Of a stretch of DNA of 64,000 nucleotides, positions 2,810-55,352 are shown one piece after another; within the stretch, counting starts at the first letter, position 1, and each line of letters starts with the position of its first letter. The notes beneath the pieces were generated by a model. The model ran no database searches, was not told the DNA's origin, and was given only the letters and a program-made list of their open reading frames with translations. Made by a program: the position numbers and the translations under genes. This DNA is from Patescibacteria group bacterium (GTDB lineage: Bacteria; Patescibacteriota; Patescibacteriia; Patescibacteriales; WJLG01), in assembly GCA_028716485.1 (NCBI GenBank), contig JAQUPS010000003.1:715-64714 (forward strand). The letters are read 5' to 3'.

Positions 2810-3763
2810 TTATTTGGATTTTATGACGTTCTCCACCGCTCCCCAGGCGCTGTCGCCCGCGACCGGAATCAATAAGACGACCTTGTCGCCGGGAATGCCT
2901 TTGTAATAAGTGATGCTCGCGGTAATGACGCGGAATTTTTTATGCTCGGCCTTCACTTGATAATTGCCATTAGAATCTTTTTCCAATTTGCCGATGACGC
3001 GTTTTCGCTCAATCGGCTTGGTTTGCTTATAGACAAAGGTGCCGCGGTCAGTGATGGTTAATTTCAGCATATCACCTTCCACCAGTTTTGATTTGGAAGC
3101 ATAATTGGCAGGCACGCTATATTCCTTGCCGTCCGGGCCGATCATATTTTCGCCGTTGAACACGCCCTCGACGATATGACCATAATCATCTTCTTCTTCG
3201 GCATCAAACCCGTCGCTGATTTCGGCAATACTGATGCGCTCTTCGTCATTCTCGCTTAAAAAACTCCCGAACAAAGAAGACAGCTTGGCGGAACACTTCT
3301 GGATATTTTCCAAAAGCTGCTCGGCCATTATTATCTTGGCTTTGGAAATCAAAACACTGTCTTCGCCGATATTTTCCTCCTCGTCATCATCATCTAAATC
3401 TTCCTCTTCGATTAATTCTTCATCCTCGTCCGCCGACTTGTCCTCCGTAGCTTCAGCAAAGGGGGAAGCCTTAGCGTAGGCGGGCTCGTCCGCCGCCGAT
3501 TCTTCTTCATCTTCGATAACTGCGGAAACGGCAGTCGGCGCGCAAACATCAGCCTCATCATCCGCGTCTAAATCAAAATCCTCAGCTTCATCCTCGGCTG
3601 GCTTAATGTCAGCATCTTCCCTTAAATCATCCTCATTTTCATCAGCGGCATGAAACCCCAAAGCGGAAAGATTATCCTCGCCCGCCGAAGCTTTAGCGAA
3701 GGCGGGCTCGCCCGCGCTTCCCTCTTCAGGTTCAAAACCGGCGTTAAAATTCAAATTTGGCAT
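2810..3763 (-). CDS. Hypothetical protein: extremely acidic low-complexity N-terminal region plus conserved-looking C-terminal beta-rich domain
   Basis: The ATG at 3763 (MPNLNF...) is preferred over the track's TTG at 3787. The D/E-rich region contains repeat-derived AGEPAFAKASAGE and ADEPAYAKASPFAEATEDKSADE. The C-terminus reads IVEGVFNGENMIGPDGKEYSVPANYASKSKLVEGDMLKLTI... Function unknown. Confidence 0.6.
   Translation of the reverse strand: MPNLNFNAGFEPEEGSAGEPAFAKASAGEDNLSALGFHAADENEDDLREDADIKPAEDEAEDFDLDADDEADVCAPTAVSAVIEDEEESAADEPAYAKASPFAEATEDKSADEDEELIEEEDLDDDDEEENIGEDSVLISKAKIIMAEQLLENIQKCSAKLSSLFGSFLSENDEERISIAEISDGFDAEEEDDYGHIVEGVFNGENMIGPDGKEYSVPANYASKSKLVEGDMLKLTITDRGTFVYKQTKPIERKRVIGKLEKDSNGNYQVKAEHKKFRVITASITYYKGIPGDKVVLLIPVAGDSAWGAVENVIKSK
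3432..3483. repeat. GC-rich 52-nt repeat, in-frame genic copy (family A)
   Basis: GCCGACTTGTCCTCCGTAGCTTCAGCAAAGGGGGAAGCCTTAGCGTAGGCGG is a near copy of 764..815. On the minus strand it is translated as PAYAKASPFAEATEDKSA. Confidence 0.7.
3677..3712. repeat. Shorter family-A module inside the same CDS
   Basis: CTCGCCCGCCGAAGCTTTAGCGAAGGCGGGCTCGCC shares the CCGAAGCTTTAGCGAAGG core with 14364..14394. It is translated as GEPAFAKASAGE. Confidence 0.5.
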
Positions 3764-3886: not shown

Positions 3887-4074
3887 TTTTGTCATCCTGA
3901 GGAGCGAGCCGCCTCGGCAAGCGACGAAGGATCTGTTTTCCGATGCGGTTTTTCCAAATCATCAAGAATCAGAACGAACATTTTGAATTTAACGGCTCGA
4001 TAAAAATTTTCCTCGCAGAATTGGCTCGGCATACTAAATAGATCCTTCGCGCGGCGCTCAGGATGACAAAAAAA
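3887..4074. repeat. MITE-like double-hairpin element E2 (inverted relative to E1)
   Basis: It has the same termini as E1. Its reverse complement aligns with the right two-thirds of E1 (...TTCGTTCTGATTCTTGATGATTTGGAAAAACCGCATCGGAAAACAGATCCTTCG...). Confidence 0.75.
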
Positions 4075-4143: not shown

Positions 4144-6219
4144 TTAGCGAAGCCGGTTAGTGTTAAGGTTCATGTTTTTCGCCATTGTTCCGTTCGACAG
4201 ACGGACGATACTTAGTCCGCAAGCCACCCGGTTGGCGTTGGCGATTCTCCGGCCCATTATGTCGTAGGAAATAACATTCTGGGCGGAAAATTTTTGCAAA
4301 GGCGTTTTCATTGCCGGTTTAAGCGCTGGCTTGACCGAAGTTAAATTACTCCGATGCCAGACAGTCAAACCGCCGGCCGTCCCAAACCAAACCGCATTTG
4401 TAGCCGAATCTACGTAAACACAATGCGCGTAATCATCGGCGATAGTGTGGCCGACTGAAGTCCGCAACGGTACAGCTTGCCAAAGATTGATTGGATCTTT
4501 ATAGTAAACTCCGCTATCAGTACAAACCCAAACGGTAGTATGCAGATCAACATAAATACTGTTAATCTTTCGGTCAGCGTAAGGCCAAGACGAAGTAGTG
4601 AATGATGAATTGACGTTAATATATTTAACGTCGGATTTACCATCTTGATACCCGGCATCAGCCACCCAAACCGCGCCATCAACCATAATATCGCCTGCCA
4701 CCTGCCTGGTCGCTGAATACTGGAGTTTCTTATACGTCCAATTCCCGTGAAAATCATATGAATACAGAGAGCTGTCCGTACCAATCCATAGCCGCTTGCC
4801 GGTTGAACTGACGGAAAGAATCTTCTCTTTCGCCAATTGCGACGGAAAGTCCATTTTGTTCGCCCAAGAACCACTCCCAGCATACGACGCAATCAAAACA
4901 GGAACTGCGCAAACTAGCCAAACATTCTTTCCGCTGTCGCCTACCAGCCAATATGGATGATTAAGCGGCCCATCGATAATACCAATACCAAACGCCGAAT
5001 CGCCTTTCTCAATATGATCGTTCTTGCCCAACCACAACGCCCCGTTCTTATCCACGAAAGAAGTGTTAACCGCGCCGTAGATATTTTCAGCACTACTATT
5101 GAGAGATGGGGCATCTGAACCAACATCATAACGATATCCGTCGCTGGCACCGCCGACTAATATCCGACCGGTGTTAGCAGTATTAATAAGTGTTATGTTG
5201 TTGTCGTGGGGATAATGAATTCCCGTAACCGACATCTGGCTAAAATTTGCTCCGTCATAAACCCACATTTTATTATTGGTTCCTACATAGAGCTTTTCGC
5301 CATCTGTCGCCAGACAATTTATCAACCCACCAAACGCTTCTAACTCGGAAGGTGTTAACGATTCGTTTTCGGAAGAAGGCATTGATTGCTTCCAGCCGGA
5401 AAAAGGATTTATACTACAATACCAAAGGTCACCATCTCTCTGCCCGACATAATATCGGCCTTTGAAATAAGCAACCGCGCCAGCATTGTTCTGCGGCATA
5501 GCAGGATCATAGGCAATAACCGTAAAAGAAGATGCGGTGCCAGAAAGGAAAACGTAAATTCCCGTTTCTCCTGAGGCCACCACCGTATCGCCCCAAACTG
5601 AAATATTCAGCGGCGAACCGGCAATCAATTGATCGCCAACTTTCCAGAATGTCTCATGACCGGCAGTGTCTAAATAGAAAATTCCCTGCGACCAAGTTCC
5701 CCAGATTGTGCCATCGTTACCGGCAGCAATCCGATAGACATCGTGCGTTAAGGGAATTTTTTCCCACATTCCGCCGCCATTCAAATACAAACCGTCGGTC
5801 AAGGCCGCGTAAACGCCTTTTTGCGTAATTGCTAAGTCGTAACCGATGCTTGAACGGTCCGGAGTTTTTTTGACCATCCTATCTTGCCAACTCTTATATT
5901 CAGTCGGCAACCAAGACAGCCAATTATAACCCATGGCAAAAATGTATCCGTCCGGCCTGACCGCAATTGAATAAACATCGTTAGCCGGTAAATTATTGCT
6001 AACGGTGGTTTGAATCTGCCACGGCAAACTTTCGCCGGGAAGATTCGTGCCATCTTTGCTAAAGACCTCTATCCCGCCGTTCGTAGCGGTATAGATCTTG
6101 TTGCCGACGATGGAGATGTCATTGACGACATTGTCGTAAATGGCGCTCCGCCATTCGGCGGCAAAAACGGAAACAACGGAAAACAAAACGACAGACAAAA
6201 TACCGATAAGCTTTTTCAT
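4144..6219 (-). CDS. Secreted beta-propeller protein with Reg_prop-like repeats and a T9SS-type-looking C-terminal tail
   Basis: Signal peptide MKKLIGILSVVLFSVVSVFA. Recurrent 'W.GT..G...' blades (VWFGTAGGLTVW, LWIGTDSSLYSY, VWVCTDSGVYYK, LYVGTNNKMWVY). Strong SD AAAGGAGG before the ATG. C-terminal tail: VISYDIMGRRIANANRVACGLSIVRLSNGTMAKNMNL. Confidence 0.7.
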   Translation of the reverse strand: MKKLIGILSVVLFSVVSVFAAEWRSAIYDNVVNDISIVGNKIYTATNGGIEVFSKDGTNLPGESLPWQIQTTVSNNLPANDVYSIAVRPDGYIFAMGYNWLSWLPTEYKSWQDRMVKKTPDRSSIGYDLAITQKGVYAALTDGLYLNGGGMWEKIPLTHDVYRIAAGNDGTIWGTWSQGIFYLDTAGHETFWKVGDQLIAGSPLNISVWGDTVVASGETGIYVFLSGTASSFTVIAYDPAMPQNNAGAVAYFKGRYYVGQRDGDLWYCSINPFSGWKQSMPSSENESLTPSELEAFGGLINCLATDGEKLYVGTNNKMWVYDGANFSQMSVTGIHYPHDNNITLINTANTGRILVGGASDGYRYDVGSDAPSLNSSAENIYGAVNTSFVDKNGALWLGKNDHIEKGDSAFGIGIIDGPLNHPYWLVGDSGKNVWLVCAVPVLIASYAGSGSWANKMDFPSQLAKEKILSVSSTGKRLWIGTDSSLYSYDFHGNWTYKKLQYSATRQVAGDIMVDGAVWVADAGYQDGKSDVKYINVNSSFTTSSWPYADRKINSIYVDLHTTVWVCTDSGVYYKDPINLWQAVPLRTSVGHTIADDYAHCVYVDSATNAVWFGTAGGLTVWHRSNLTSVKPALKPAMKTPLQKFSAQNVISYDIMGRRIANANRVACGLSIVRLSNGTMAKNMNLNTNRLR

Positions 6220-11793: not shown

Positions 11794-11972
11794 CCTGAGC
11801 CGTCCGCTCCGAGCGGATGGCGAAGGATCTATATTGGTAGCATAGCATTATCTTTTGAAAATATTTCCAAAACATTGTCGGTAAATTTTAAATATTCGTT
11901 CTAATCCGTGAGTAATGCATTAAAATGGTTTACAATCACAGATCCTTCGCCAGGGGCTCAGGATGACAAATA
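11785..11972. repeat. MITE-like double-hairpin element E3
   Basis: TTTTTTGTCATCCTGAGCCGTCCGCTCCGAGCGGATGGCGAAGGATCT ... AGATCCTTCGCCAGGGGCTCAGGATGACAAA. The core contains ATTCGTTCTAATCCGTGA, as in E1. The element fills the whole spacer between 11977 (stop) and the start of the next gene. Confidence 0.75.
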
Positions 11973-11976
11973 GTTA

Positions 11977-14114: not shown

Positions 14115-15155
14115 TTATTTTAACAATTTCTTTATATCCGCCAAGGTTTCAACTTTAACCAATTCTTTCCGCATTTCCGCCGCGTCAGGCATTCCCTTTA
14201 CATACCAGCACAAATGTTTGCGCATTTCAAGTATCCCCCGCTTGCCCTTCAATTTTTCCATCAATTTGGCGTGCTCGTAAGCAATTTTAAAAACAATCCC
14301 CTCCTCGGGAGGGGTGGCTCGCGCCGCGCGAGACGGGGAGGGTATATTATTAATTCCTTTTTTACTTGTCCTCCGAAGCTTTAGCGAAGGAGGATTTTTT
14401 ATTTCCTCAAAGATTTGCGGGTGCCCGCAAGACCCTTGCGCGATGCCGACGCCGTCCGCGTTGGTTTTTTTAAGCATGATTTCCGCGTCTTCCGGAGTAT
14501 TTATTCCGCCATTGGCAATAATAACTCCGGAAAAAATTTTCTTCAGCCGATTAATCGCTCCGTAATCAATCTCGCCGGCAAAGCCTTGCGCCAAAGTCCG
14601 ACCGTGAACCATAATCGCCGCGATATCCAGTCCTTTCATCTTTTCCACAAAGTCAAAAATACTAATTCCCCTCTTGGGAGGGGTGGATCCGCCCCTGGCG
14701 GAGACGGGGTGGGTCGATATGCGCGCTTTAACCGAGACCGGCAACTTGGTATTTTTTAAAACCGCTTCCAAAACCCGCCGCGATTGCTCCAAATCCTTGA
14801 ACAAAGCTGTGCCGGCGCCCGACTTTACTATTTTAGCCACCGGACAGCCGAAATTAATATCAATCCCGTCCGGCTTGATTTTCTGCTCGACTATCTTTAC
14901 GGCTTTGGCGAAATGTTCCGGATTATTACCGAAAAGCTGGACGACAAATTTCGCCCCGCCATTTTTTTTGTAAGAGTCCAAAAGTCCGCTAGTCCGCTCG
15001 CTGTCAAAAAACAAACCGGCGGCCGAAACCATCTCGCTGTAAACAACATCCGCGCCGAACTTGCCGCACAAATACCGAAAAGCCGCGTCGGTTATTCCCG
15101 CCATCGGCGCTAAACAAAAAATAGGCTTTTTCAATTTTTGCCAAAAATTACCCAT
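14115..15155 (-). CDS. dus: tRNA-dihydrouridine synthase (Dus family) carrying two repeat-derived insertions
   Basis: LAPMAGITDAAFR, INFGCP, HGRT and the GNGGI-like IANGGI blocks of the Dus TIM barrel. The patches STHPVSARGGSTPPKRG and PPSLKLRRTSKKGINNIPSPSRAARATPPEEG coincide with DNA repeats. Confidence 0.85.
   Translation of the reverse strand: MGNFWQKLKKPIFCLAPMAGITDAAFRYLCGKFGADVVYSEMVSAAGLFFDSERTSGLLDSYKKNGGAKFVVQLFGNNPEHFAKAVKIVEQKIKPDGIDINFGCPVAKIVKSGAGTALFKDLEQSRRVLEAVLKNTKLPVSVKARISTHPVSARGGSTPPKRGISIFDFVEKMKGLDIAAIMVHGRTLAQGFAGEIDYGAINRLKKIFSGVIIANGGINTPEDAEIMLKKTNADGVGIAQGSCGHPQIFEEIKNPPSLKLRRTSKKGINNIPSPSRAARATPPEEGIVFKIAYEHAKLMEKLKGKRGILEMRKHLCWYVKGMPDAAEMRKELVKVETLADIKKLLK
14297..14394. 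repeat. GC-rich hairpin repeats (family B module plus family A module) in-frame inside dus
   Basis: TCCCCTCCTCGGGAGGGGTGGCTCGCGCCGCGCGAGACGGGGAGGGT, then ACTTGTCCTCCGAAGCTTTAGCGAAGGAGGA. Both modules recur elsewhere in the window. Confidence 0.7.
14666..14717. repeat. GC-rich hairpin repeat (family B) in-frame inside dus
   Basis: TTCCCCTCTTGGGAGGGGTGGATCCGCCCCTGGCGGAGACGGGGTGGGTCGA, with hairpins CCCCTC-TTGG-GAGGGG and CCGCC-CCT-GGCGG. Near-identical modules occur at 33374..33462. Confidence 0.7.
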
Positions 15156-19776: not shown

Positions 19777-19835
19777 CGTTCACCTCCTTCTGGTAAAAAA
19801 AGTTCAAACAATATTTATAATTTTATTTTTATCTT

Positions 19836-21713
19836 TTATTTCCTGATTGTCAAGGGTTTTTTGATAATTTGCGGTGTGGTGGTCGCGGGCGCGGAATAAA
19901 TTTCCAATTTATATAAAGTAAAAACATCGTCAGTTTGTTTGATTTTTTTTAAAACCAGGCCGGCGTTTTTTAATTTGCCGGCGTTCAGATAATCAAAATC
20001 TTTCTCGGGAAAAGTAAAATTAAAATAATAAACCGGGATTAATTTGGCTAATTTTTGATAACGAATGTTCATTGAGTCGTCGATGAGCGTGTTGACGATA
20101 ACTTTCCGTTCCGGAAAAAAGATCTTGTCATGATAGCGGGTAATGATGACTGCCGACGGTTCGGTCAGCTTCAGCACCTGGTCATATTCCGATTTCAAAA
20201 CTTGATTGTTAGTTTCGGTGTAAATCAACCCTTCCTTTGAGCCGCCGAGTAAAAAATTGGCGGAAAAGAAAAAAATGATGATAATAATAATGGCTTGCGC
20301 CGCGCCGATGGAAAAATGCCGGGACGGCCAGCGGGGTATAAAAAAATTCCAAAATTTATTTTGCCCGACATTGACCATGACCTCGCTGCCTTCTTTCTCG
20401 CGGGCGAAAATCGCCCAGGATAAACGGGAGATGAAAAATGCGGCAAAGGGCATCGCGAAAAGATAAACCGGCAGCCAATAACGAGTGTAAGAATTGCCGA
20501 TGGTGATTTCGTTGATGTTCGGATTATCGTTAAAAACCCAGCTGCCGTAATATAAGATCAAGATCGCGCTGGCGGCAAAATAAGCAAAAACGTACGCCCA
20601 ATATTTTTTCTTCCATTTCCAAACACGGGAAACAAAAAGGATAAAACCGAGAAAGGCCGGCCAAAAAAGCAGCGGAAACATTTTCAGGAAATAACTCTTA
20701 AAATTTATTTCGGATTGATTATAATTCAAGCCGAAATAAAAAATAGTGTCTTTGATTTTATTGAGCGGTTCGGGGAGAAAAGAAAATTGCCGGCTGACGA
20801 CGGTTTTGGTCAAAGCAACGCTGGCGGTCGCGACGGTCGTGATCGATTTATTGATTTCCGTATAACCGCCGTTGAGATATCCGCCGTAAAGAACTTCGTT
20901 CCAGCTCATAATCGGCGCAAACGGCAGAGCAATGAAAAAAATAAAGATAATTAATTTTAAAAATCCGATTTTTTTCAAATTAAACAGCCAGAGGATGGTC
21001 AGCGCCGGTATCAGCCAAATGGCTTCGGAAGTGCGGGTGATCAACGCGCCGCCGATAAATAATCCGCCCATGGCTGCCAAAAATAAATTTAACCAATCCA
21101 TCTGCCAAAACCGCCAGGAAAAAAATTTATTCTTCTTGGACGCCCGGGATGCGGCTAAAATAATAAAATACATTCCGATAATTAAGAGTGAAACAAATAA
21201 TACGTTATGAAACATGCTGCGTACGGTATAAAAATACCAAACCGGAAAACTTAGCAGAAGAAAGGCGCTTAAAAAAGCGATTTTAGGAGTGAATATTTTC
21301 TTAATCAAGAGATAATAGAAAAAAATCGCCAGCGCCGCGAAAAATGGCGTCAGGAACGGTAAGACGCTCACTGAAGATATTTTGGCGATTGTACCATAAA
21401 TTAAAATAATACCTAAAAAACTGACTGGCTTAAGCGAGCCATTGTCGCTGCGGAAACTGCGCGGCTGCATAATCTCATCGACGAACGGATTATATTTTTC
21501 ATAAATTGTCAGCTGGCCGGTTTGGGCGTAAAGTTTGGCAAAAATATAATTGGCTGTTTCGTCCGGCGAACCCCATTTAATGAAATTATCCCGCTGGACA
21601 AAACCGACAAAACCGCAGCTGGCCGCGAAAAAACCGGCCGCCAATAAAGCAACGCAAATCTCACGCCAATAATTCTTTAAAAATGCCTTTATCCTATTCA
21701 TATCTTTGCCCAT
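19836..21713 (-). CDS. Polytopic membrane protein, GT-C-type glycosyltransferase-like (ArnT/PMT family-like)
   Basis: 625 aa with at least 10 predicted TMs by eye. An acidic DE motif in the first extracytoplasmic loop (WGSPDETANYIF) resembles GT-C enzymes. The C-terminal domain is soluble. Confidence 0.6.
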   Translation of the reverse strand: MGKDMNRIKAFLKNYWREICVALLAAGFFAASCGFVGFVQRDNFIKWGSPDETANYIFAKLYAQTGQLTIYEKYNPFVDEIMQPRSFRSDNGSLKPVSFLGIILIYGTIAKISSVSVLPFLTPFFAALAIFFYYLLIKKIFTPKIAFLSAFLLLSFPVWYFYTVRSMFHNVLFVSLLIIGMYFIILAASRASKKNKFFSWRFWQMDWLNLFLAAMGGLFIGGALITRTSEAIWLIPALTILWLFNLKKIGFLKLIIFIFFIALPFAPIMSWNEVLYGGYLNGGYTEINKSITTVATASVALTKTVVSRQFSFLPEPLNKIKDTIFYFGLNYNQSEINFKSYFLKMFPLLFWPAFLGFILFVSRVWKWKKKYWAYVFAYFAASAILILYYGSWVFNDNPNINEITIGNSYTRYWLPVYLFAMPFAAFFISRLSWAIFAREKEGSEVMVNVGQNKFWNFFIPRWPSRHFSIGAAQAIIIIIIFFFSANFLLGGSKEGLIYTETNNQVLKSEYDQVLKLTEPSAVIITRYHDKIFFPERKVIVNTLIDDSMNIRYQKLAKLIPVYYFNFTFPEKDFDYLNAGKLKNAGLVLKKIKQTDDVFTLYKLEIYSAPATTTPQIIKKPLTIRK

Positions 21714-25203: not shown

Positions 25204-26985
25204 TTAATAATTTCTCTTGTGATACTTGGTAAACAAAACTTTCTTTTCTAATTTGTTTTTTTTGATCCAATCGATCACTTCCAAGACGCCCTTATTTTCA
25301 TAAGAGCGGCGAAAGCCTTTTTTGGCAAAATCTATCTGATACAATGTTTGCTGCCGCTGGGCGCGGATCTCGTCGGTGGTCGGGATGGGCTGGCCGCCGC
25401 CGCCGATACAGCCGCCGCGGCAAGCCATCACTTCAATATAATCGAATTTATTCAGATCGGCGATAATCGGATCGATATTGCCAATGCCGTTGACTACCGC
25501 GATCCTCACTTTACTGCCGGCAATGTCCACTACGGCCGTTTTTATGCCGGCCAATCCCCTCGCCTCGTTATAATCTATCTTAGCGCGGCACAATTTTGCC
25601 TTTGGCCCGCAAGCCAAAAAATCCGCAGTGCGCAAGGCCGATTCCATCACGCCGCCCGAGCCGCCGAATAAAGCGGCCGCGCCGGAAAACCTGCCCAGCG
25701 GATCGTCGGTTTCCCGCGGTTTTAATCTGGCCAAATCAATATTATTTTTCTTCAACAAAAAAGATAATTCTCTGGTAGTTAAAACTTGATCAATCACCTG
25801 CCGCCCGTCGACTTTCATTTCCGGCCGGACTGCTTCATATTTTTTGGCCGTACAGGGCATAATCGAAACCAGTTTGATATTTTTCGGGTCGATCTTCATT
25901 TTCTTGGCCCAAAAAGTTTTTACCGCGCCGGCCAGATGGATATGCGGCGAGCGGGTCGTGGCCAGATGCGGAATAAGCTCCGGATGCAGCAGCTCGACGT
26001 AATTCACCCAGCCAGGACAGCAGGAAGTGAACATCGGTCGAGTAGCCTTCTTATCTTTAATCCGTTCTAATAATTCCTCGGCTTCGATTATCGTCGTTAA
26101 ATCAGCGCCAAAATTTATATCAAAAACATAATCAAAGCCCAATTGGCGCAAAGCGGCGGTGATTTTTCCCGAAGTGTCTTTGCCATACGGCATCTTAAAA
26201 TCCTCGCCGATCGTCACCCTGACCGACGGCGCAAACTGTGCCACCAAAATTTCCTTATCTTTATAAGCGGCGGCTTCGCCTCGCCGAAGCCCCTGGCGAA
26301 GGCGGGGGTGGGTTGCGCGGTTTACTTTTTTTCTTGCCAACAACTTTTCCACCGCCGCGATTTCAGATTGCTCCTGCGCCGCCGACACCGGACAATGCAG
26401 GGCGCACTGGCCGCACAAAATGCATTTGAATCCTTCATTCTGCCGCGGCACAATTTCCTGCCGGCTCCCCTTGCCGGCGAATTTCAAATAATGGATATTC
26501 TGCTGCATGGCGCAGGCCTCGACGCAATTCTTGCAGTCAATGCACTGCGAACCGTCAATCTCCACGGCATTGCGGAATTTATAGATCTTGCGCGCGCCTT
26601 TGCGGTCGCGGAATCTTGTTAATTTTACGCCATATTTTTTCACCGCGCCAAGCAAAGGACATTGGAAGCGCCAGATGCAATTCGGACATTTTTCAATATG
26701 CTCGGCAAAAATCAATTCTAAATTCATATTGCGCGCCTTTTTCACCCGTTCGGTTTCAGTCCGCACTTCCATGCAATCACAGACGGTCGTCGCGCACGAC
26801 GGCACTAATCTTTTATAGCCCTTAACTTCCACGGAACAGACGCGGCAATTTCCTTTCACCGGAAAATCCGGATGGAAACACAAAGCCGGAATATCAATCC
26901 CGTTCTTCTTGGCAACTTCCAAGACGGTCTGGCCCGGATCGGTCAGATAATCTTTACCGTTGATCTTTATCTTCAGCTTCTTCAT
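25204..26985 (-). CDS. hydA: [FeFe]-hydrogenase catalytic subunit (M3-type HydA) with a repeat-derived linker insertion
   Basis: N-terminal 2Fe-2S ferredoxin-like domain, H..C..C.....C cluster, two CxxCxxCxxxCP ferredoxin motifs. H-cluster motifs FTSCCPGW, MPCTAKKYE and EVMACRGGCIGGGGQP. Confidence 0.92.
   Translation of the reverse strand: MKKLKIKINGKDYLTDPGQTVLEVAKKNGIDIPALCFHPDFPVKGNCRVCSVEVKGYKRLVPSCATTVCDCMEVRTETERVKKARNMNLELIFAEHIEKCPNCIWRFQCPLLGAVKKYGVKLTRFRDRKGARKIYKFRNAVEIDGSQCIDCKNCVEACAMQQNIHYLKFAGKGSRQEIVPRQNEGFKCILCGQCALHCPVSAAQEQSEIAAVEKLLARKKVNRATHPRLRQGLRRGEAAAYKDKEILVAQFAPSVRVTIGEDFKMPYGKDTSGKITAALRQLGFDYVFDINFGADLTTIIEAEELLERIKDKKATRPMFTSCCPGWVNYVELLHPELIPHLATTRSPHIHLAGAVKTFWAKKMKIDPKNIKLVSIMPCTAKKYEAVRPEMKVDGRQVIDQVLTTRELSFLLKKNNIDLARLKPRETDDPLGRFSGAAALFGGSGGVMESALRTADFLACGPKAKLCRAKIDYNEARGLAGIKTAVVDIAGSKVRIAVVNGIGNIDPIIADLNKFDYIEVMACRGGCIGGGGQPIPTTDEIRAQRQQTLYQIDFAKKGFRRSYENKGVLEVIDWIKKNKLEKKVLFTKYHKRNY
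26267..26320. repeat. GC-rich repeat chimera (A/B-type modules) in-frame inside hydA
   Basis: GCGGCGGCTTCGCCTCGCCGAAGCCCCTGGCGAAGGCGGGGGTGGGTTGCGCGG shares GAAGCCCCTGGCGAAGG with the E3/E5 hairpins and GGGGTGGGTT with family B. It is translated as NRATHPRLRQGLRRGEAAA. Confidence 0.55.
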
Positions 26986-29197: not shown

Positions 29198-29267
29198 AGA
29201 TTAGTTAGTTAATTGGTTAATTAGTTGATTGGTTAAATTATAGCATGAAATAAAACATTGGCTAAAC

Positions 29268-29298
29268 AGATCCCTCGCGCGGCGCTCGGGATGACAAA
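29268..29298. repeat. Solo half (single hairpin arm) of the MITE-like element
   Basis: AGATCCCTCGCGCGGCGCTCGGGATGACAAA has no partner arm nearby. The next 20 nt (AAGGAGGATTTTTTATTTC) are identical to 14386..14405. Confidence 0.55.
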
Positions 29299-29334
29299 CA
29301 AAAGGAGGATTTTTTATTTCTTACTTCTTACTCA

Positions 29335-32004: not shown

Positions 32005-33948
32005 TCAAATCGAATGGATTTCCATCTGGCAATTGCCGCAATCAAAATTTAAGAGATATTTCTTGCCTTGATTGACTAAAAATAACGGCTCGGCAAAATT
32101 AGCTTTCCGCGCCGGCTTCCCTTTCGGGCAGGCGTTCAGCCAATATTTCAGACAATGTTTGCAGGTCATTAATTTTTTGCCGCGGTAATCTTTTTGCAAT
32201 TCAAAAGCCGGTTCGACGACCTTGGCGCCGTGCCGGGCGTAAAATGATTTGGCCAATTTATTGGCGACATTGAATGAATAGTCCAAATTTTTATGAAAAT
32301 ACGGCTGAGCGGGATTTTGATGCTCGATTTTAATCCGCGGATAATTTTTCAATCTTTTTTTAAGCAGCGCGGCGGCCGATTTGCGGCGCCATTCGTTTAA
32401 AACCGAAAGCGGAATGAAATACGGCTTATCCCAATCAAAAATTATTTCACGCGCGGAAAATATCGTTTCGCCCAGTTTGCTCAATTGTTCCTGCCAATTT
32501 TTTATAGCGAGTTCCGGCTTTTCGGCCGGCTTCTTTTCCGTTTTGAATTCCAAGGCAGCGGAATTATTATCTTCATCAATCGCTTCAATCTTAAAACCGT
32601 TCTTGGTTTCCTTAATGATATAATCAAGCGCGATGCGGCGACTGACTCCCCTTTCCACCGCTTTTTCAAAAGCCGGATTTTCATTGCGGTAGATTTCCGT
32701 GCCGACCGTGAGCGGCAGAACTTTATTCGGATAAATTTTTCCGTCTTTCACCATATTTATATTCGTGCCGACCAGTTCGCCTTCGCGGTCAAACCAGCAG
32801 ATGCCGTCGCCGTTCTGCAAATCGTGCTTTTTTTCCAAGCTGAAATGCGAACAAGCGGCGCTCTCGACTTTGCCGATTAATTCTCCCAAGGATTTTTGCG
32901 TGCGCGGCGAGATAATTTCACCCTTGCGGCCGCGCAGAAAATATTCGCTATAACCGCGGTTAAAAGTTTTATTCTGGTCGGGCGCAAAATTTATTTCGGT
33001 TTTTCCCGAGGAAGCGCGGGCATATTTTCCGCCGCTCGCTTCGATAATTTTATCAAGCTCCTGGCGATATTCGGCTGTGACATTGGCGACATAAGCGCAA
33101 TCTTTCAGCCGGCCTTCGATTTTAAAAGAAGTGACTCCCGCCTCAACCAATTCGTTCAGCGCGCCGGATAAATTCAAATCTTTCAGGGATAATAAATATT
33201 TATCTTTGGCTAAAATTTTCCCTTCGCTGTCGATCAAATCAAACTGCTGGCGGCAGACCTGCGCGCATTTTCCCCGATTGGCGCTGCTGCCGCATTGAGC
33301 TTGGGAAAAATAACAGCGGCCGGAGGCGGAAACGCAGAGCGCTCCGTGGACAAAAACTTCCAAATCCATTTTATTCCCCTCTTGGGAGGGGTGGCCGCTT
33401 CCCCTCTTGGGAGGGGTGCCGAGCCCGGCGAGGCGGGGTGGGTTGGCGAGACGGGGTGGGTTTTCGCGCGAAATTGGCCGAGCTGTTTGTTCACAAATAT
33501 TTTTTATCTCCTTGATATTTAGCTCGCGAGCCAAAATGACCCGGGATAATCCGGCGGCGGCCAAAAATTTCACCTGCTCGACGCTGGAATTATCGCATTG
33601 CGTCGAGGCGAACAAAGGAATGGGCGGCAAATCCATTTCCAAAATTCCCATATCCTGGATTATCAAAGCGTCGGCGCCGATTTCATAAGCCCGGTCGATA
33701 AACTTTTTCACTTCGTCGATTTCATTATCAAAAAATATCGTATTCAAGGCGACATAAATCCGCCCATAATATTGATGCGCGAACTCAATCAGCAATTCGA
33801 TATCTTCCCAGGAATTGCCGGCCGCCGAGCGCGCGCCAAAATCCGGCCCGCCGATATAAACCGCGTCCGCGCCCGCCAGAATCGCCAGCTTGCCGGTTGC
33901 CAAATTTTTAGCCGGAGCCAAAAGCTCAAGCTTGATAGTTTTTTCCAT
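32005..33948 (-). CDS. Peptidase U32 family protein (collagenase-like / RlhA-TrhP-type) carrying a repeat-derived insertion
   Basis: LELLAPA..., IYVALN and EVFVHGALCVSASGRCYFS are U32 signature blocks, with a C-terminal Cys-rich tail. The segment RENPPRLANPPRLAGLGTPPKRGSGHPSQEGN coincides with the family-B repeats. Confidence 0.85.
   Translation of the reverse strand: MEKTIKLELLAPAKNLATGKLAILAGADAVYIGGPDFGARSAAGNSWEDIELLIEFAHQYYGRIYVALNTIFFDNEIDEVKKFIDRAYEIGADALIIQDMGILEMDLPPIPLFASTQCDNSSVEQVKFLAAAGLSRVILARELNIKEIKNICEQTARPISRENPPRLANPPRLAGLGTPPKRGSGHPSQEGNKMDLEVFVHGALCVSASGRCYFSQAQCGSSANRGKCAQVCRQQFDLIDSEGKILAKDKYLLSLKDLNLSGALNELVEAGVTSFKIEGRLKDCAYVANVTAEYRQELDKIIEASGGKYARASSGKTEINFAPDQNKTFNRGYSEYFLRGRKGEIISPRTQKSLGELIGKVESAACSHFSLEKKHDLQNGDGICWFDREGELVGTNINMVKDGKIYPNKVLPLTVGTEIYRNENPAFEKAVERGVSRRIALDYIIKETKNGFKIEAIDEDNNSAALEFKTEKKPAEKPELAIKNWQEQLSKLGETIFSAREIIFDWDKPYFIPLSVLNEWRRKSAAALLKKRLKNYPRIKIEHQNPAQPYFHKNLDYSFNVANKLAKSFYARHGAKVVEPAFELQKDYRGKKLMTCKHCLKYWLNACPKGKPARKANFAEPLFLVNQGKKYLLNFDCGNCQMEIHSI
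33374..33462. repeat. Tandemly duplicated family-B GC-rich hairpin modules in-frame inside the U32 gene
   Basis: 2x TTCCCCTCTTGGGAGGGGTG followed by 2x GCGAG(G/A)CGGGGTGGGTT. Confidence 0.75.
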
Positions 33949-53107: not shown

Positions 53108-53375
53108 ATATATTTTTTAAACAAACTTCCGCGCCACACTAAATCTATCAATGCAACAAAAAAATAATTAATTTTCCTTATAGCGAGCATTGAAAAATTT
53201 CCGTTAAATCATGCAGCGTAGAAGCCGTGCAAAATCGTGTTGTCCGAAGCCCGCCCCGGGCGGGCGAGTATAACGATTTTGCTAGGCTTCTTAGCGGAGT
53301 GATAGGAAATTTTTCCTGCGAGCAATTTTTTGTGCTACTTTTTTTAAAAAAAGTAGCAAAGATAATGTCGGGAAT

Positions 53376-53416
53376 AGACCCTCCCCGTCTCACAGAGCTC
53401 GACACCCATCCCAAGG
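53376..53416. repeat. Family-B GC-rich module, intergenic copy in reverse orientation
   Basis: The reverse complement CCTTGGGATGGGTGTCGAGCTCTGTGAGACGGGGAGGGTCT parallels CTTGGGAGGGGTGG...GAGACGGGG(T/A)GGGT in dus and the U32 gene. Confidence 0.55.
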
Positions 53417-53432
53417 AGTGGATTTTTTAAAA

Positions 53433-55334
53433 TTATCCGGCTAATTTGACGCCGGATTTTTTAATGGTAAAAGAAGGCTTGTTTAATTTAAGATGAAGCG
53501 TGAAAAGGCGCAGGGAATTCAATAAAGGAAAAAAATCGGTAATAAAATTATAGGCTGAAGCGCCGACCGGACCAATAACGCCCATAAAAACCAAAGAAAA
53601 ACCGATCAAGTTCATTGTGCCCCAAATCCAAAAATCTTGCCGGGAGATCTGAACTGTATATTTTCCCAACTCGATCATTTCGGGCAATTCCGACAAATCG
53701 TCTTTCATCAAGGCGATATCGGCCGCTTCAATCGCCGAATCCGAACCGATGGCGCCCATCGCCACGCCGATATCGGCCAAGGAAATCGCCGCCGCGTCAT
53801 TGACGCCGTCGCCGACCATAATCGTTTTATATTTCCGGCTCAGCGATTTTTTGATAAAATCCAATTTGTCTTGCGGCAGAAGATTGGCATGATAATCCTT
53901 GATGCCGATCTGCTTGGCGATCCTGGCCGCGACCTTGCCGTTATCGCCAGTGAGCATAACTATTTTATTAATGCCCAGTTCAAAAAACTGTTTAATAATA
54001 TTTTCCGTGCCCGGACGGATCACATCGGCTAAAGCCAAAAATCCCACCGGCTTTCCGTTATAGCCCACAGCCACCAGCGTATAGCCCCTGGCTTCTTCGC
54101 GGGCGATAATTTTCTTTTGTTCCCCGTCAAAGCTGACATTTTCTTTTTCCAAAAATGAAATTTTGCCGCAGACGATTTTTTTTGATTGGCCGCCGATCAC
54201 GATTCCCTGACTGGTCGTTTCCTTAAAAATATCCGGCTCGGTTATTTTAATGCCGCGGAATCTGACATACTCGACGATCGATTTGGCGATCGGATGGCTG
54301 GAAACGCTTTCCGCCATTCCGGCATAAGACAATAATTCTTTCTCGGTAAAGCCGGAAAATACCAGGAAATCCTGGGCTTTGAGCCGGCCGGAGGTAATCG
54401 TGCCGGTTTTATCTAATAATACCTGTTTAGCGCGGGTCAAGCCTTCCAAAAATTCTCCGCCCTTGATAATGACGCCGCGGCGCGCCGCATAGCCGACGGC
54501 GGCCAAAAAAGCCATGGGCACGGCCACCGCAATATCGTCAGCGCAAGCGACCAGCAATAATGACAAGACCAAATTGAAGTTGCGCGTAAAAAGCAAAATG
54601 ATGATCGCGCCGCCGACTGTCAAAACAATATACCAGGTAGCGAAAATTTCCGCTGTCGTGCGGATTTTTGATTTATTTTTTTGCGACTCTTCCACCATCT
54701 TGACGATTTTTTCCAAAGTCGTATCGCGGCCGACTTTATCCGCCCGCACCGTCAGGGAACCGGCGACATTGAGCGTGGAACTGTAAACCGGATCGCCGGA
54801 TTTTTTGGCCACCGGCACGGACTCGCCGGTCAAAGATGATTGGTCGACTTCGGCTTCGCCTTGCGTGACAGTCCCATCGACGGAAATCCTTTCGCCCGAT
54901 TCGATAATCACCAAATCACCCACTCTGATTTTTTCCGTGGCGATTTTTATTATTTTGCCGTTGCGCTTGACCCGGGCTTTTTCCGGCCGCAATTTTAACA
55001 GGCTGGCAATCGCCGAGCGCGCTTTGTTCGCCGTGTAATCGCCGAAAATTCTGGCCGATGTCAGCATCAAGTTGATAAAAACCACCGAAGTCCATTCTCC
55101 GGCGATAATCGCCGCGATCAAAGCGATGCTGGCCAGCAAATCCACGGAAACCTGGCGTTTGTTCAACGAACGGATCGCGCTCACCAAAACCGGCAATAAA
55201 CCGAGATAGGAAGCGATGATAAAAATTGTCCGCAAATCGGCTGGCGGCGCGAAATGAAAATAATTAATAACCAGCAAAATCAGCAAAACAACGACAAAAA
55301 TTTTATCAAAATAGGCTTCGAATTTTTTTAGCAT
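53433..55334 (-). CDS. P1B-like (heavy-metal-type) P-type ATPase lacking an N-terminal metal-binding domain and with a non-canonical TM6 motif
   Basis: TGES, DKTGTIT, MLTGDN and GDGVNDA, with P1B-like topology. At the position of CPC/SPC the sequence reads VACADDIAVAVPMAF. ATG at 55334. Confidence 0.85.
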   Translation of the reverse strand: MLKKFEAYFDKIFVVVLLILLVINYFHFAPPADLRTIFIIASYLGLLPVLVSAIRSLNKRQVSVDLLASIALIAAIIAGEWTSVVFINLMLTSARIFGDYTANKARSAIASLLKLRPEKARVKRNGKIIKIATEKIRVGDLVIIESGERISVDGTVTQGEAEVDQSSLTGESVPVAKKSGDPVYSSTLNVAGSLTVRADKVGRDTTLEKIVKMVEESQKNKSKIRTTAEIFATWYIVLTVGGAIIILLFTRNFNLVLSLLLVACADDIAVAVPMAFLAAVGYAARRGVIIKGGEFLEGLTRAKQVLLDKTGTITSGRLKAQDFLVFSGFTEKELLSYAGMAESVSSHPIAKSIVEYVRFRGIKITEPDIFKETTSQGIVIGGQSKKIVCGKISFLEKENVSFDGEQKKIIAREEARGYTLVAVGYNGKPVGFLALADVIRPGTENIIKQFFELGINKIVMLTGDNGKVAARIAKQIGIKDYHANLLPQDKLDFIKKSLSRKYKTIMVGDGVNDAAAISLADIGVAMGAIGSDSAIEAADIALMKDDLSELPEMIELGKYTVQISRQDFWIWGTMNLIGFSLVFMGVIGPVGASAYNFITDFFPLLNSLRLFTLHLKLNKPSFTIKKSGVKLAG

Positions 55335-55352
55335 AAACAAAAAATTATATTG

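Follow-up and report, generated by a model that had tools for sequence, protein, structure and literature searches.

Short mobile repeats that insert in frame into protein-coding genes are already known: Rickettsia palindromic elements (RPEs) are palindromic repeats that lie in frame within coding sequences (Ogata et al. 2000; reviewed in PMC10969869), intragenic repetitive extragenic palindromes (REPs) of the GTAG/CGTC type encode 20-30 amino acids in Opitutus terrae, R. conorii and other species (clusters 43-82; Di Nocera et al. 2013, PMC3733652), and transposable elements of the miniature inverted-repeat type (MITEs) such as ERIC, Correia/NEMIS, Nezha and others create in-frame fusions (PMC10969869). 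In RAYT/REPIN systems, a nuclease gene is bracketed by inverted miniature repeats, and many copies carry no gene (Bertels & Rainey 2011, PMC3116915). Here we describe a small GC-rich repeat of the REP/MITE kind in a 64,000-nucleotide stretch of contig JAQUPS010000003.1 (the window), which comes from a genome of 45% GC assigned to Patescibacteria, or candidate phyla radiation (CPR), from the source names of the nearest homologues. The repeat forms a composite in-frame insertion in a U32-family gene, and behaves like the known intragenic repeats while probably standing outside the RPE and REP families (no GTAG, no RAYT, a different size and two hairpins). We consider it probable that this insert derives from a mobile repeat, grew in place, and is tolerated as a disordered loop.

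The core of the insert, at 33374-33462 on the plus strand, reads TTCCCCTCTTGGGAGGGGTG GCCGC TTCCCCTCTTGGGAGGGGTG CCGAGCCCG GCGAGGCGGGGTGGGTT G GCGAGACGGGGTGGGTT. The hairpin module TTCCCCTCTTGGGAGGGGTG occupies 33374-33393 (A1) and is repeated at 33399-33418 (A2) with a period of 25 nt, and the G-rich tail module follows at 33428-33444 (GCGAGGCGGGGTGGGTT, B1) and 33446-33462 (GCGAGACGGGGTGGGTT, B2) with a period of 18 nt, giving an A-A-B-B layout of two hairpins (CCCCTC-TTGG-GAGGGG) and then two tails. A1 and A2 are identical at 20 of 20 nucleotides, including the loop TTGG; B1 and B2 match at 17 of 18 and abut directly, and Tandem Repeats Finder (TRF) reports the latter as an 18-nt array at 33427-33462 (2.0 copies, 94% match). 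The window has three copies of the 16-nt core CCCCTCTTGGGAGGGG (a hairpin of 6 bp, loop TTGG) where shuffles predict 0.02, and five copies of the tail pattern where 0.17 are predicted; repeat family D11 joins both hairpin copies with copies at 14296 and 14665. The initial annotation had described a tandemly duplicated repeat, with the hairpin module twice and then the tail module twice, just before the EVFVHGALC block of a U32 open reading frame (ORF). This description is confirmed in every detail, with direct reading, shuffle counts and TRF in agreement.

We then compared the array with a covariance model (CM), seeded with 38 copies drawn from many phyla and applied to the window without filtering. 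The model found one complete inner unit at 33397..33446 on the plus strand (full-length match R1, 40.4 bits, E 2e-9), composed of the A2 hairpin (33401-33416), a degenerate second hairpin (GCCG-AGCC-CGGC) and tail B1 (33428-33444). Lone matches flank this unit: the outer hairpin of A1 (33374..33393, plus strand; stem CCCCTC/GAGGGG at 33376-33391, partial match of 16.7 bits) and tail B2 (33446..33462, plus strand; partial match at 33449-33464).

The host gene (32005..33948, minus strand) encodes an intact U32-family protein of 647 amino acids with an RlhA-like architecture of Peptidase_U32 and DUF3656 domains. The Pfam Peptidase_U32 profile matched at 225.9 bits (cut-off 22.4), in two stretches separated by the insert, and DUF3656 matched over its full profile length at 73.7 bits in the C-terminal part, as in long RlhA-type proteins. 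Relatives of the protein bear the JGI name '23S rRNA 5-hydroxycytidine C2501 synthase', and it is from these names alone that we call it putatively RlhA-like; it scored far below the NCBIfam equivalog cut-offs for TrhP, UbiU and UbiV (149, 136 and 37 bits against 534, 440 and 275). All invariant columns are retained, including C205, C212, C228 and C232, which are invariant in 35 sequences with the window protein among them; the conserved cysteines after the FVHGALC strand are presumably the Fe-S ligands known from characterised U32 members.

Codon-level DNA alignment with an insert-free relative (metagenome contig L005) and three unit-bearing ones (L001, L003 and L004) set the limits of the complete in-frame insert at 33370..33480 (minus strand; 111 nt, or 37 codons). 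The reverse strand of this interval encodes RPISRENPPRLANPPRLAGLGTPPKRGSGHPSQEGNK, followed by MDLEVFVHGALCVSASGRCYFS. As a consequence of the 25-nt period, the two hairpin copies are translated in different frames (TPPKRG versus HPSQEG). The insert also includes 18 nt (33463-33480) that have no counterpart in the inserts of relatives and contain a 12-nt perfect palindrome, TTTCGCGCGAAA (33462..33473).

An AlphaFold2 model of the protein (mean predicted local distance difference test score, pLDDT, of 85.9; predicted template modelling score, pTM, of 0.85) places the segment in a disordered loop: residues 160-191 have pLDDT below 50 and no secondary structure, and link helix 145-155 to strand 195-202 (EVFVHGAL). 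This beta-strand leads into the conserved Cys motif, with the insert directly before it. The N-terminal domain resembles TIM barrels, including that of the U32 peptidase Mk0906 (PDB 5D88), and a PDB sequence search with the protein gave no match. A (beta/alpha)8 barrel has its catalytic face at one end and its helix-to-strand loops at the other. Based on the model, the insert would thus be placed on the barrel face away from the active site, and its tolerance only ten residues before the first invariant Cys is consistent with a loop facing in that direction.

In a protein alignment with the 45 best U32 homologues, we measured the stretch between ILARE.. and ..FVHGALC, which is exactly 17 residues long in 35 of 46 sequences, 27-39 residues in nine close relatives and in the more distant P0041, and 54 residues in the window protein. 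The segment is therefore a lineage-specific insert and no conserved feature of U32 proteins. The nine close relatives carry a single-unit insert at this site, P0041 carries an unrelated one (SAQGGSASGGG), and the doubled form occurs only in the window. In a neighbour-joining tree calculated with the insert masked, all insert-bearing U32 proteins fall within one clade of 14. A metagenome scan for U32 relatives yielded just 13 loci, three of them full-length close relatives, and the related contigs, which the initial annotation had proposed to compare, differ in state at the site: no unit (L005), one unit (L001 and L004), one unit with a 24-nt insertion inside its tail (L003), and the doubled unit (window). 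Unit-bearing genes have a common 3' junction (..GAGGGGAAT, then one codon, then [IVM][DE]LE). Hairpin 1 has the same 6-bp stem in the window, L001, L003 and L004, whose genes are only about 74% identical in DNA, and the peptide frame through this hairpin varies among genes (TPPTEG, HPSREG, HPSQEG).

We also observed other short Ala/Gly/Pro/Ser-rich inserts at other loops of U32 homologues, in P0008 and P0010 (TRDAARACP), in P0008 again (LPADAGRCQG), and in P0079, P0032, P0086, P0031 and P0058. These sequences suggest that several repeat families may remodel the U32 protein in Patescibacteria.

The history that we propose for the insert starts from an element copy, seen in the U32 gene of a small Patescibacteria clade, that would have entered the helix-to-strand loop before EVFVHGAL. 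The element has no stop codons, and its C-rich strand would encode a Pro/Gly-rich hydrophilic peptide, so that the insert would be tolerated as a disordered loop with the gene intact. Later growth would have proceeded by two tandem duplications or by a second unit inserting into the central hairpin, and only frame-keeping versions would have survived. The outcome of this growth is plain, in that the U32 insert became longer by about 42-48 nt in this genome; the route is a matter of interpretation. The earlier proposal that the element expanded in place, by repeat-driven growth of a protein loop, is supported: each of the three checks suggested there (homologue alignment, comparison of related contigs, structure prediction) had a favourable outcome, with single units in relatives and doubled modules in the window, and by either route it was the repeat itself that lengthened the loop.

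The route favoured in the initial annotation, to which we would give a nearly even chance, consists of two independent local tandem duplications by replication slippage, one of the 25-nt hairpin module and one of the 18-nt tail module. It accounts well for the identity of A1 and A2 through the loop and for the closely matching, abutting B modules, and the 18-nt event is in frame by itself; it nevertheless requires two events, of which the 25-nt one breaks the frame unless a 1-nt change compensates for it, and the last 5 nt of the A units are unlike (GCCGC versus CCGAG). The other route, which we hold more tentatively, is nested re-insertion, in which a second complete unit of 46-48 nt entered the central hairpin of the resident unit and gave A1[A2-h2-B1]B2 in one step. 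In line with this, the CM sees a complete inner unit between a lone hairpin and a lone tail, an outer unit that is well formed, its second hairpin being palindromic (GCCGCGGC or GCCGGC), is left when 46 or 48 nt are taken out, an event of 48 nt keeps the frame, the inner unit and a copy in the genome of another Patescibacteria member (L135) differ by 1 nt, and L003 has its 24-nt secondary insertion inside its unit. Nested re-insertion sits less easily with the loop and linker common to the inner and outer units, as expected if they were copies of each other, and neither a target duplication nor, in the loci compared, another nested copy was evident. Both routes fit the A-A-B-B order equally.

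A mis-assembled repeat, with only one unit in the true gene, would also give doubled modules, and one observation lends this some weight: repeats of this family break assemblies, many contigs that carry the associated DUF559 genes (described below) being just 0.5-3 kb long. We regard such an artefact as very unlikely, as the 89-nt array is shorter than ordinary reads, the 111-nt total keeps the 647-residue ORF open, and the insert of a relative is identical in two independent assemblies (L001 from ENA/NCBI and L002 from Logan); the point changes between copies of each module are, we would argue, a further sign against it. Intron- or intein-like removal of the insert was considered as well and dropped, no such signatures being present and the frame being kept at every copy.

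The element recurs in other genes of the window. The Dus gene at 14115..15155 (minus strand), which matches Pfam Dus, contains two full in-frame units on the plus strand, one at 14664..14717 (CM 58 bits, encoding ..THPVSARGGSTPPKRG..) and one at 14295..14346 (CM 47.4 bits, encoding ..IPSPSRAARATPPEEG..); both belong to the 38 seed copies of the CM, so that these two matches arise by construction. Each unit lies opposite a gap in the alignment to the solved Dus structure 1VHN. A divergent relative of the element lies in frame in a hydrogenase-like gene (25204..26985, minus strand) at 26247..26316 on the plus strand, with a weak CM match (12.2 bits; ..ATHPRLRQGLRRGEAAA..). The orthologue of this gene in L001, 86% identical, has a full unit at the same site (19824-19873, CM 51.7 bits, DPPRHRGGATPPGEGN), and from these sequences the two inserts appear orthologous, persistent and fast-diverging. 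This second gene pair (full unit in L001, diverged unit in the window) behaves like the U32 genes and supports in-frame insertion of a mobile repeat. In all three genes the mRNA carries the C-rich strand and the inserts are Pro-rich (THP.., TPPKRG, HPSQEG); the in-gene units are read in differing frames at differing sites, as is possible because the element is free of stops.

These copies bear on whether the insert has been exapted and is kept by selection, either for mRNA hairpins acting in pausing, stability or attenuation, or for a binding role of the Pro-rich loop. The unchanged stem of hairpin 1 in the window, L001, L003 and L004, despite about 74% gene identity and differing frames, speaks for selection, and both Dus copies are terminator-like on the sense strand (a hairpin and then a T-rich run). 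The U32 copies are not terminator-like, however, the rest of the insert is free to vary in length and sequence, and close relatives lack the insert altogether (P0002, P0006, P0009, P0010 and P0012); the stem conservation itself could come from young age or from gene conversion by other copies. We therefore think exaptation unlikely, and prefer a mobile-repeat insert that is merely tolerated.

On its G-rich strand, the unit of 40-55 nt consists of AT, CCCCTC, a loop, GAGGGG, TGG, a second hairpin of variable sequence, and CGGGG(T/A)GGGT. We scanned one genome per species with the pattern CCCCTC N3-6 GAGGGGTGG N4-26 CGGGGWGGGT, and found the joined modules in at least 119 stretches from many phyla; the matches listed include Binatia, Verrucomicrobiota, Kiritimatiellia, Cyanobacteria, Acidobacteria, Nitrospira, Alphaproteobacteria, Ignavibacteria, Bacteroidota, Lentisphaerae, Patescibacteria and others. 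Positions that the pattern leaves free also show preferences: AT before hairpin 1, a 2-5-nt loop, TGG, a second hairpin, and the G-run tail. The second hairpin varies in sequence and keeps its self-complementarity (GCCGAAGGC, GCCCGTAGGGC, GCGCGTAGCGC, ATCCGCC..GGCGGAGA, CATCGCGAAGCGATG and others). In an alignment of 49 sequences, a pair of the second helix is CG in 26, GC in 13, UA in 4 and AU in 2, and the covariation score of this hairpin exceeds those of all 500 shuffles and of all slid controls. Many of its loops have the form G-N-A with a closing C-G pair, as known from DNA mini-hairpins of very high stability.

Most copies in other phyla are intergenic, and a few lie within long ORFs in either orientation. 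Binatia have up to six copies per 8 kb, in part as inverted dimers ([G-strand unit]-23 nt-[C-strand unit]) that look like cassettes with the gene lost by internal deletion. Many intergenic copies in the C-rich orientation are followed by a T-run, and in this orientation hairpin 1 resembles an intrinsic terminator in its sequence. Rfam 15 at the gathering threshold gave only one tRNA in the window and no family for the element, and gave nothing meaningful at E<=1 for eight element-rich loci; a literature string search for GGAGGGGTGG returned unrelated human and G-quadruplex papers only. This wide distribution also bears on whether the U32 segment is a native low-complexity linker of its lineage, driven by slippage and unrelated to mobile elements. 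Pro/Gly-rich linkers are common, and the unrelated insert of P0041 shows that the loop is simply permissive; the family evidence contradicts such an origin, which we consider highly improbable, as the 45-50-nt unit recurs in other genes of the window and in the stretches from many phyla with its two-hairpin architecture conserved, and a near-identical intergenic copy exists in another genome.

Two further observations concern the spread of the family. The second-hairpin stem of the Dus unit at 14664..14717 (14686-14705; TCCGCC/GGCGGA) is identical in three Kiritimatiellia loci (L027, L030 and L090), and one specific element variant may thus be common to different phyla. In an Aminicenantes locus (L081), oppositely oriented copies at 1383-1422 and 3314-3350 lie within one open frame of 1558 codons, a possible further intragenic case outside Patescibacteria.

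We performed a Pfam scan of the 136 ORFs within 250 nt of elements, which matched 124 families. DUF559, a Vsr-like PD-(D/E)xK nuclease, was the commonest (four members, best E 6e-33); Y1_Tnp was absent from the 25 most frequent families, and no RAYT or other transposase candidate was found between inverted element pairs. All four DUF559 genes in these loci of about 0.9 Mb, which come from Binatia, Kiritimatiellia, Falkowbacteria and one low-GC bacterium, carry an element at the 3' end in one orientation, with the C-rich strand as gene sense and the element overlapping the end of the conserved domain or starting 0-5 nt away; three of the four also have an inverted upstream copy. As those loci had been chosen for the element, we took eight further DUF559 genes by protein homology alone. 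Six of the eight have the tail-plus-hairpin on both sides, with the G-strand upstream and the C-strand at the stop, and the other two are partial. Sequence variants occur among the homology-chosen genes: CCCCC/GGGGG followed by GGGGGTTGT or GGGGATGT as the tail, and CCCCCC/GGGGGG followed by GGGGGGGATG. Among 120 DUF559 homologues, 30 terminate in an element-encoded peptide (..PTPxPSxEGN, ..THP..TPPRRG, ..PPPPLPGGE), and the motif lies elsewhere in one.

The element thus forms inverted flanks of DUF559 genes in many phyla, an association that is strongly supported, with the G-rich strand upstream of the gene and the C-rich strand starting at the stop codon or just past it; solo and paired copies would, we infer, be non-autonomous derivatives of cassettes built in this way. 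Genes bracketed in this manner lie at L113:1641-2045(-), L125:257-721(-), L100:3249-3752(-), L108:1559-1939(-), and L135:4738-5124 and 5674-6057, and in L136, L137, L140 and L141 (gene at 1501.. or 601..); the flanked gene matched Pfam DUF559 with E 1.6e-30. Many DUF559 genes lie on contigs of 0.5-3 kb, the short lengths that assembly-breaking repeats would be expected to give. The link reaches the window in two ways. In Patescibacteria L135, the element placed behind the stop codon of a DUF559 gene differs at one nucleotide from the inner unit of the U32 insert (33397-33446). A degenerate intergenic unit at 53375..53425 (minus strand, CM 19.7 bits), 8 nt after the stop of the ORF at 53433..55340 (minus strand), has an extension, GGGTCTATTCCCGACAT, that is found before DUF559 start codons in Patescibacteria L100 and L135; no DUF559 ORF follows, and from its sequence the unit looks like the solo left end of a cassette.

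Taken together, these data allow a tentative reading in which undescribed selfish DUF559 cassettes, spread over many phyla, have the repeat as their structured terminal inverted repeat, REP/RAYT-like with a different nuclease. Solo and dimer derivatives of these cassettes would populate genomes from Binatia, Verrucomicrobiota and Cyanobacteria to Patescibacteria. Within the same reading, the GNA-type loops make it conceivable that the layout of pyrimidine arm, purine arm and G-run tail is recognised as a DNA single strand, and a Py.Pu*Pu triplex fold-back may serve as the nuclease recognition site; the U32, Dus and hydrogenase inserts would be by-products of this system, remodelling loops of proteins in a CPR genome of reduced size. 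Mobilisation of the element by DUF559, or folding of the element as single-stranded DNA or as a triplex, is conjecture, to which we give a less than even chance. An exact mirror of the purine arm in the G-tail agrees with the CCCCTC variants, in which W is T or A opposite the A:T pair; the other variants seen numbered only three, and a triplex formed by this mirror-like tail is speculation from the sequence.

Several points weigh against the mobile-repeat account and its link with DUF559. The window contains no DUF559 gene, and neither a target-site duplication nor a transposition intermediate was seen; no consistent target duplication was seen at the U32, Dus or intergenic junctions. The folding energy of the insert region is no more favourable than that of shuffles (z -0.2 for RNA and -0.8 for DNA), so that folding stability alone is no evidence. 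The protein collection holds no same-species sequence, the best homologue being 75% identical. In a regex census of loci totalling about 1 Mb, A-A-B-B, direct A-A and direct B-B arrangements occurred at this locus alone, the 'A-A' matches elsewhere being head-to-head inverted dimers; because the arrangement is unique in these loci, neither growth route has a precedent, and the lack of direct A-A or B-B counts against tandem duplication. Finally, insert-bearing and insert-free proteins interleave within the clade (for example, the insert-free P0012 is joined with P0004 and P0007 at bootstrap 100), a topology that requires several losses, several gains, or recombination. Insert-bearing alleles moreover share a flank signature of about 12 residues upstream of the insert (window region 33481-33520), ..GEIKNIxEQT.. 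versus ..DQIKKIK.. in insert-free alleles, which a single insertion alone does not explain.

Local recombination at the insert flank is possible, as this signature conflicts with the tree of the rest of the gene, and L004 and L005, elsewhere about 85% identical in nucleotides, are only 44-68% identical over the 90 nt upstream of the insert. Independent insertions, repeated at a single permissive loop, may also account for the interleaving; the unrelated insert of P0041 lies at the same spot. The simplest reading of the sequences would be one old insertion, with the local patch later lost or exchanged by recombination.

With these points in view, the element can be set against the described systems. 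Like RPEs, it is a short palindromic mobile repeat found in unrelated housekeeping genes, translated with the frame kept, at positions compatible with the fold: the U32, Dus (two copies) and hydrogenase-like genes stay open, and the U32 insert is a disordered loop, a likeness of behaviour only. RPEs are about 100-150 bp long, belong to an alphaproteobacterial genus, and have a conserved peptide in one frame per family, whereas the present element is 40-55 nt long, GC-rich in a 45% GC genome, read in several frames, spread over many phyla, and doubled here; by size and composition it would stand apart from the RPE families. With REPs and REPINs it shares short GC-rich stem-loops that are dispersed at high copy, often as inverted dimers (spacer of 20-100 bp in REPs), and a repeat-flanked nuclease gene, as seen in the 119 or more stretches and in the dense copies and 23-nt-spaced inverted pairs of Binatia. 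It differs in that its consensus has no terminal GTAG, CGTC occurring only in ..GACGGGG.. copies; in its unit of two hairpins and a conserved G-run tail; and in flanking DUF559 in place of a Y1 (HUH) transposase. As with MITEs, whose non-coding derivatives of a larger element sometimes lie in ORFs, copies of the element occur within genes, and the Binatia dimers, which are inverted repeats of the unit, look internally deleted; in contrast to MITEs, the single unit has no bounding inverted repeats, and no target-site duplication or classical transposase was identified. The putative DUF559 cassettes share their ends with the element.

The element-flanked gene falls in the Vsr/DUF559 clade of PD-(D/E)xK nucleases (clade 58), which includes a group I intron homing endonuclease (PMC3424549), so that a selfish site-specific nuclease role has precedent there. 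The element-flanked genes differ in having no intron context. We know of no activity for these DUF559 proteins. We found no paper that links DUF559 to dispersed repeats and no published REP- or MITE-like repeats in CPR genomes, in searches that left most subscription journals outside.

The window is rich in miniature palindromic repeats of other kinds. A second small palindromic family (..CCTCCGAAGCTTTAGCGAAGGAGG..) occurs at 14360-14393, 3672-3705, 764-797 and 3432-3465, and the Dus gene carries the first of these copies (14360-14393) as its third in-frame insert, with the peptide ..NPPSLKLRRTSKKG... A third family, AGATCCTTCGCGCGGCGCTCAGGATGACAAAAA (hairpin ATCCT..AGGAT, then GACAAAAA), occurs at 4034-4074, 11934-11974 and 29262-29302, with shorter matches at 2757, 17123 and 15925, in intergenic-looking positions.

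The U32 gene provides a clean natural example of a mobile repeat that adds a loop to a conserved enzyme and then extends it to 37 residues, up from about 17-22, at a site only ten residues before the first conserved Cys and with the gene unbroken. As related contigs keep the intermediates (none, one, one with a secondary insertion, doubled), loop growth is directly traceable in Patescibacteria. Beyond this gene, a two-hairpin element of 40-55 nt, conserved nearly base for base across distant phyla, brackets DUF559 genes. If DUF559 mobilises or targets this element, a function would be given to a very large family of unknown function, and a second partnership of a nuclease with a miniature repeat would stand beside RAYT/REP.

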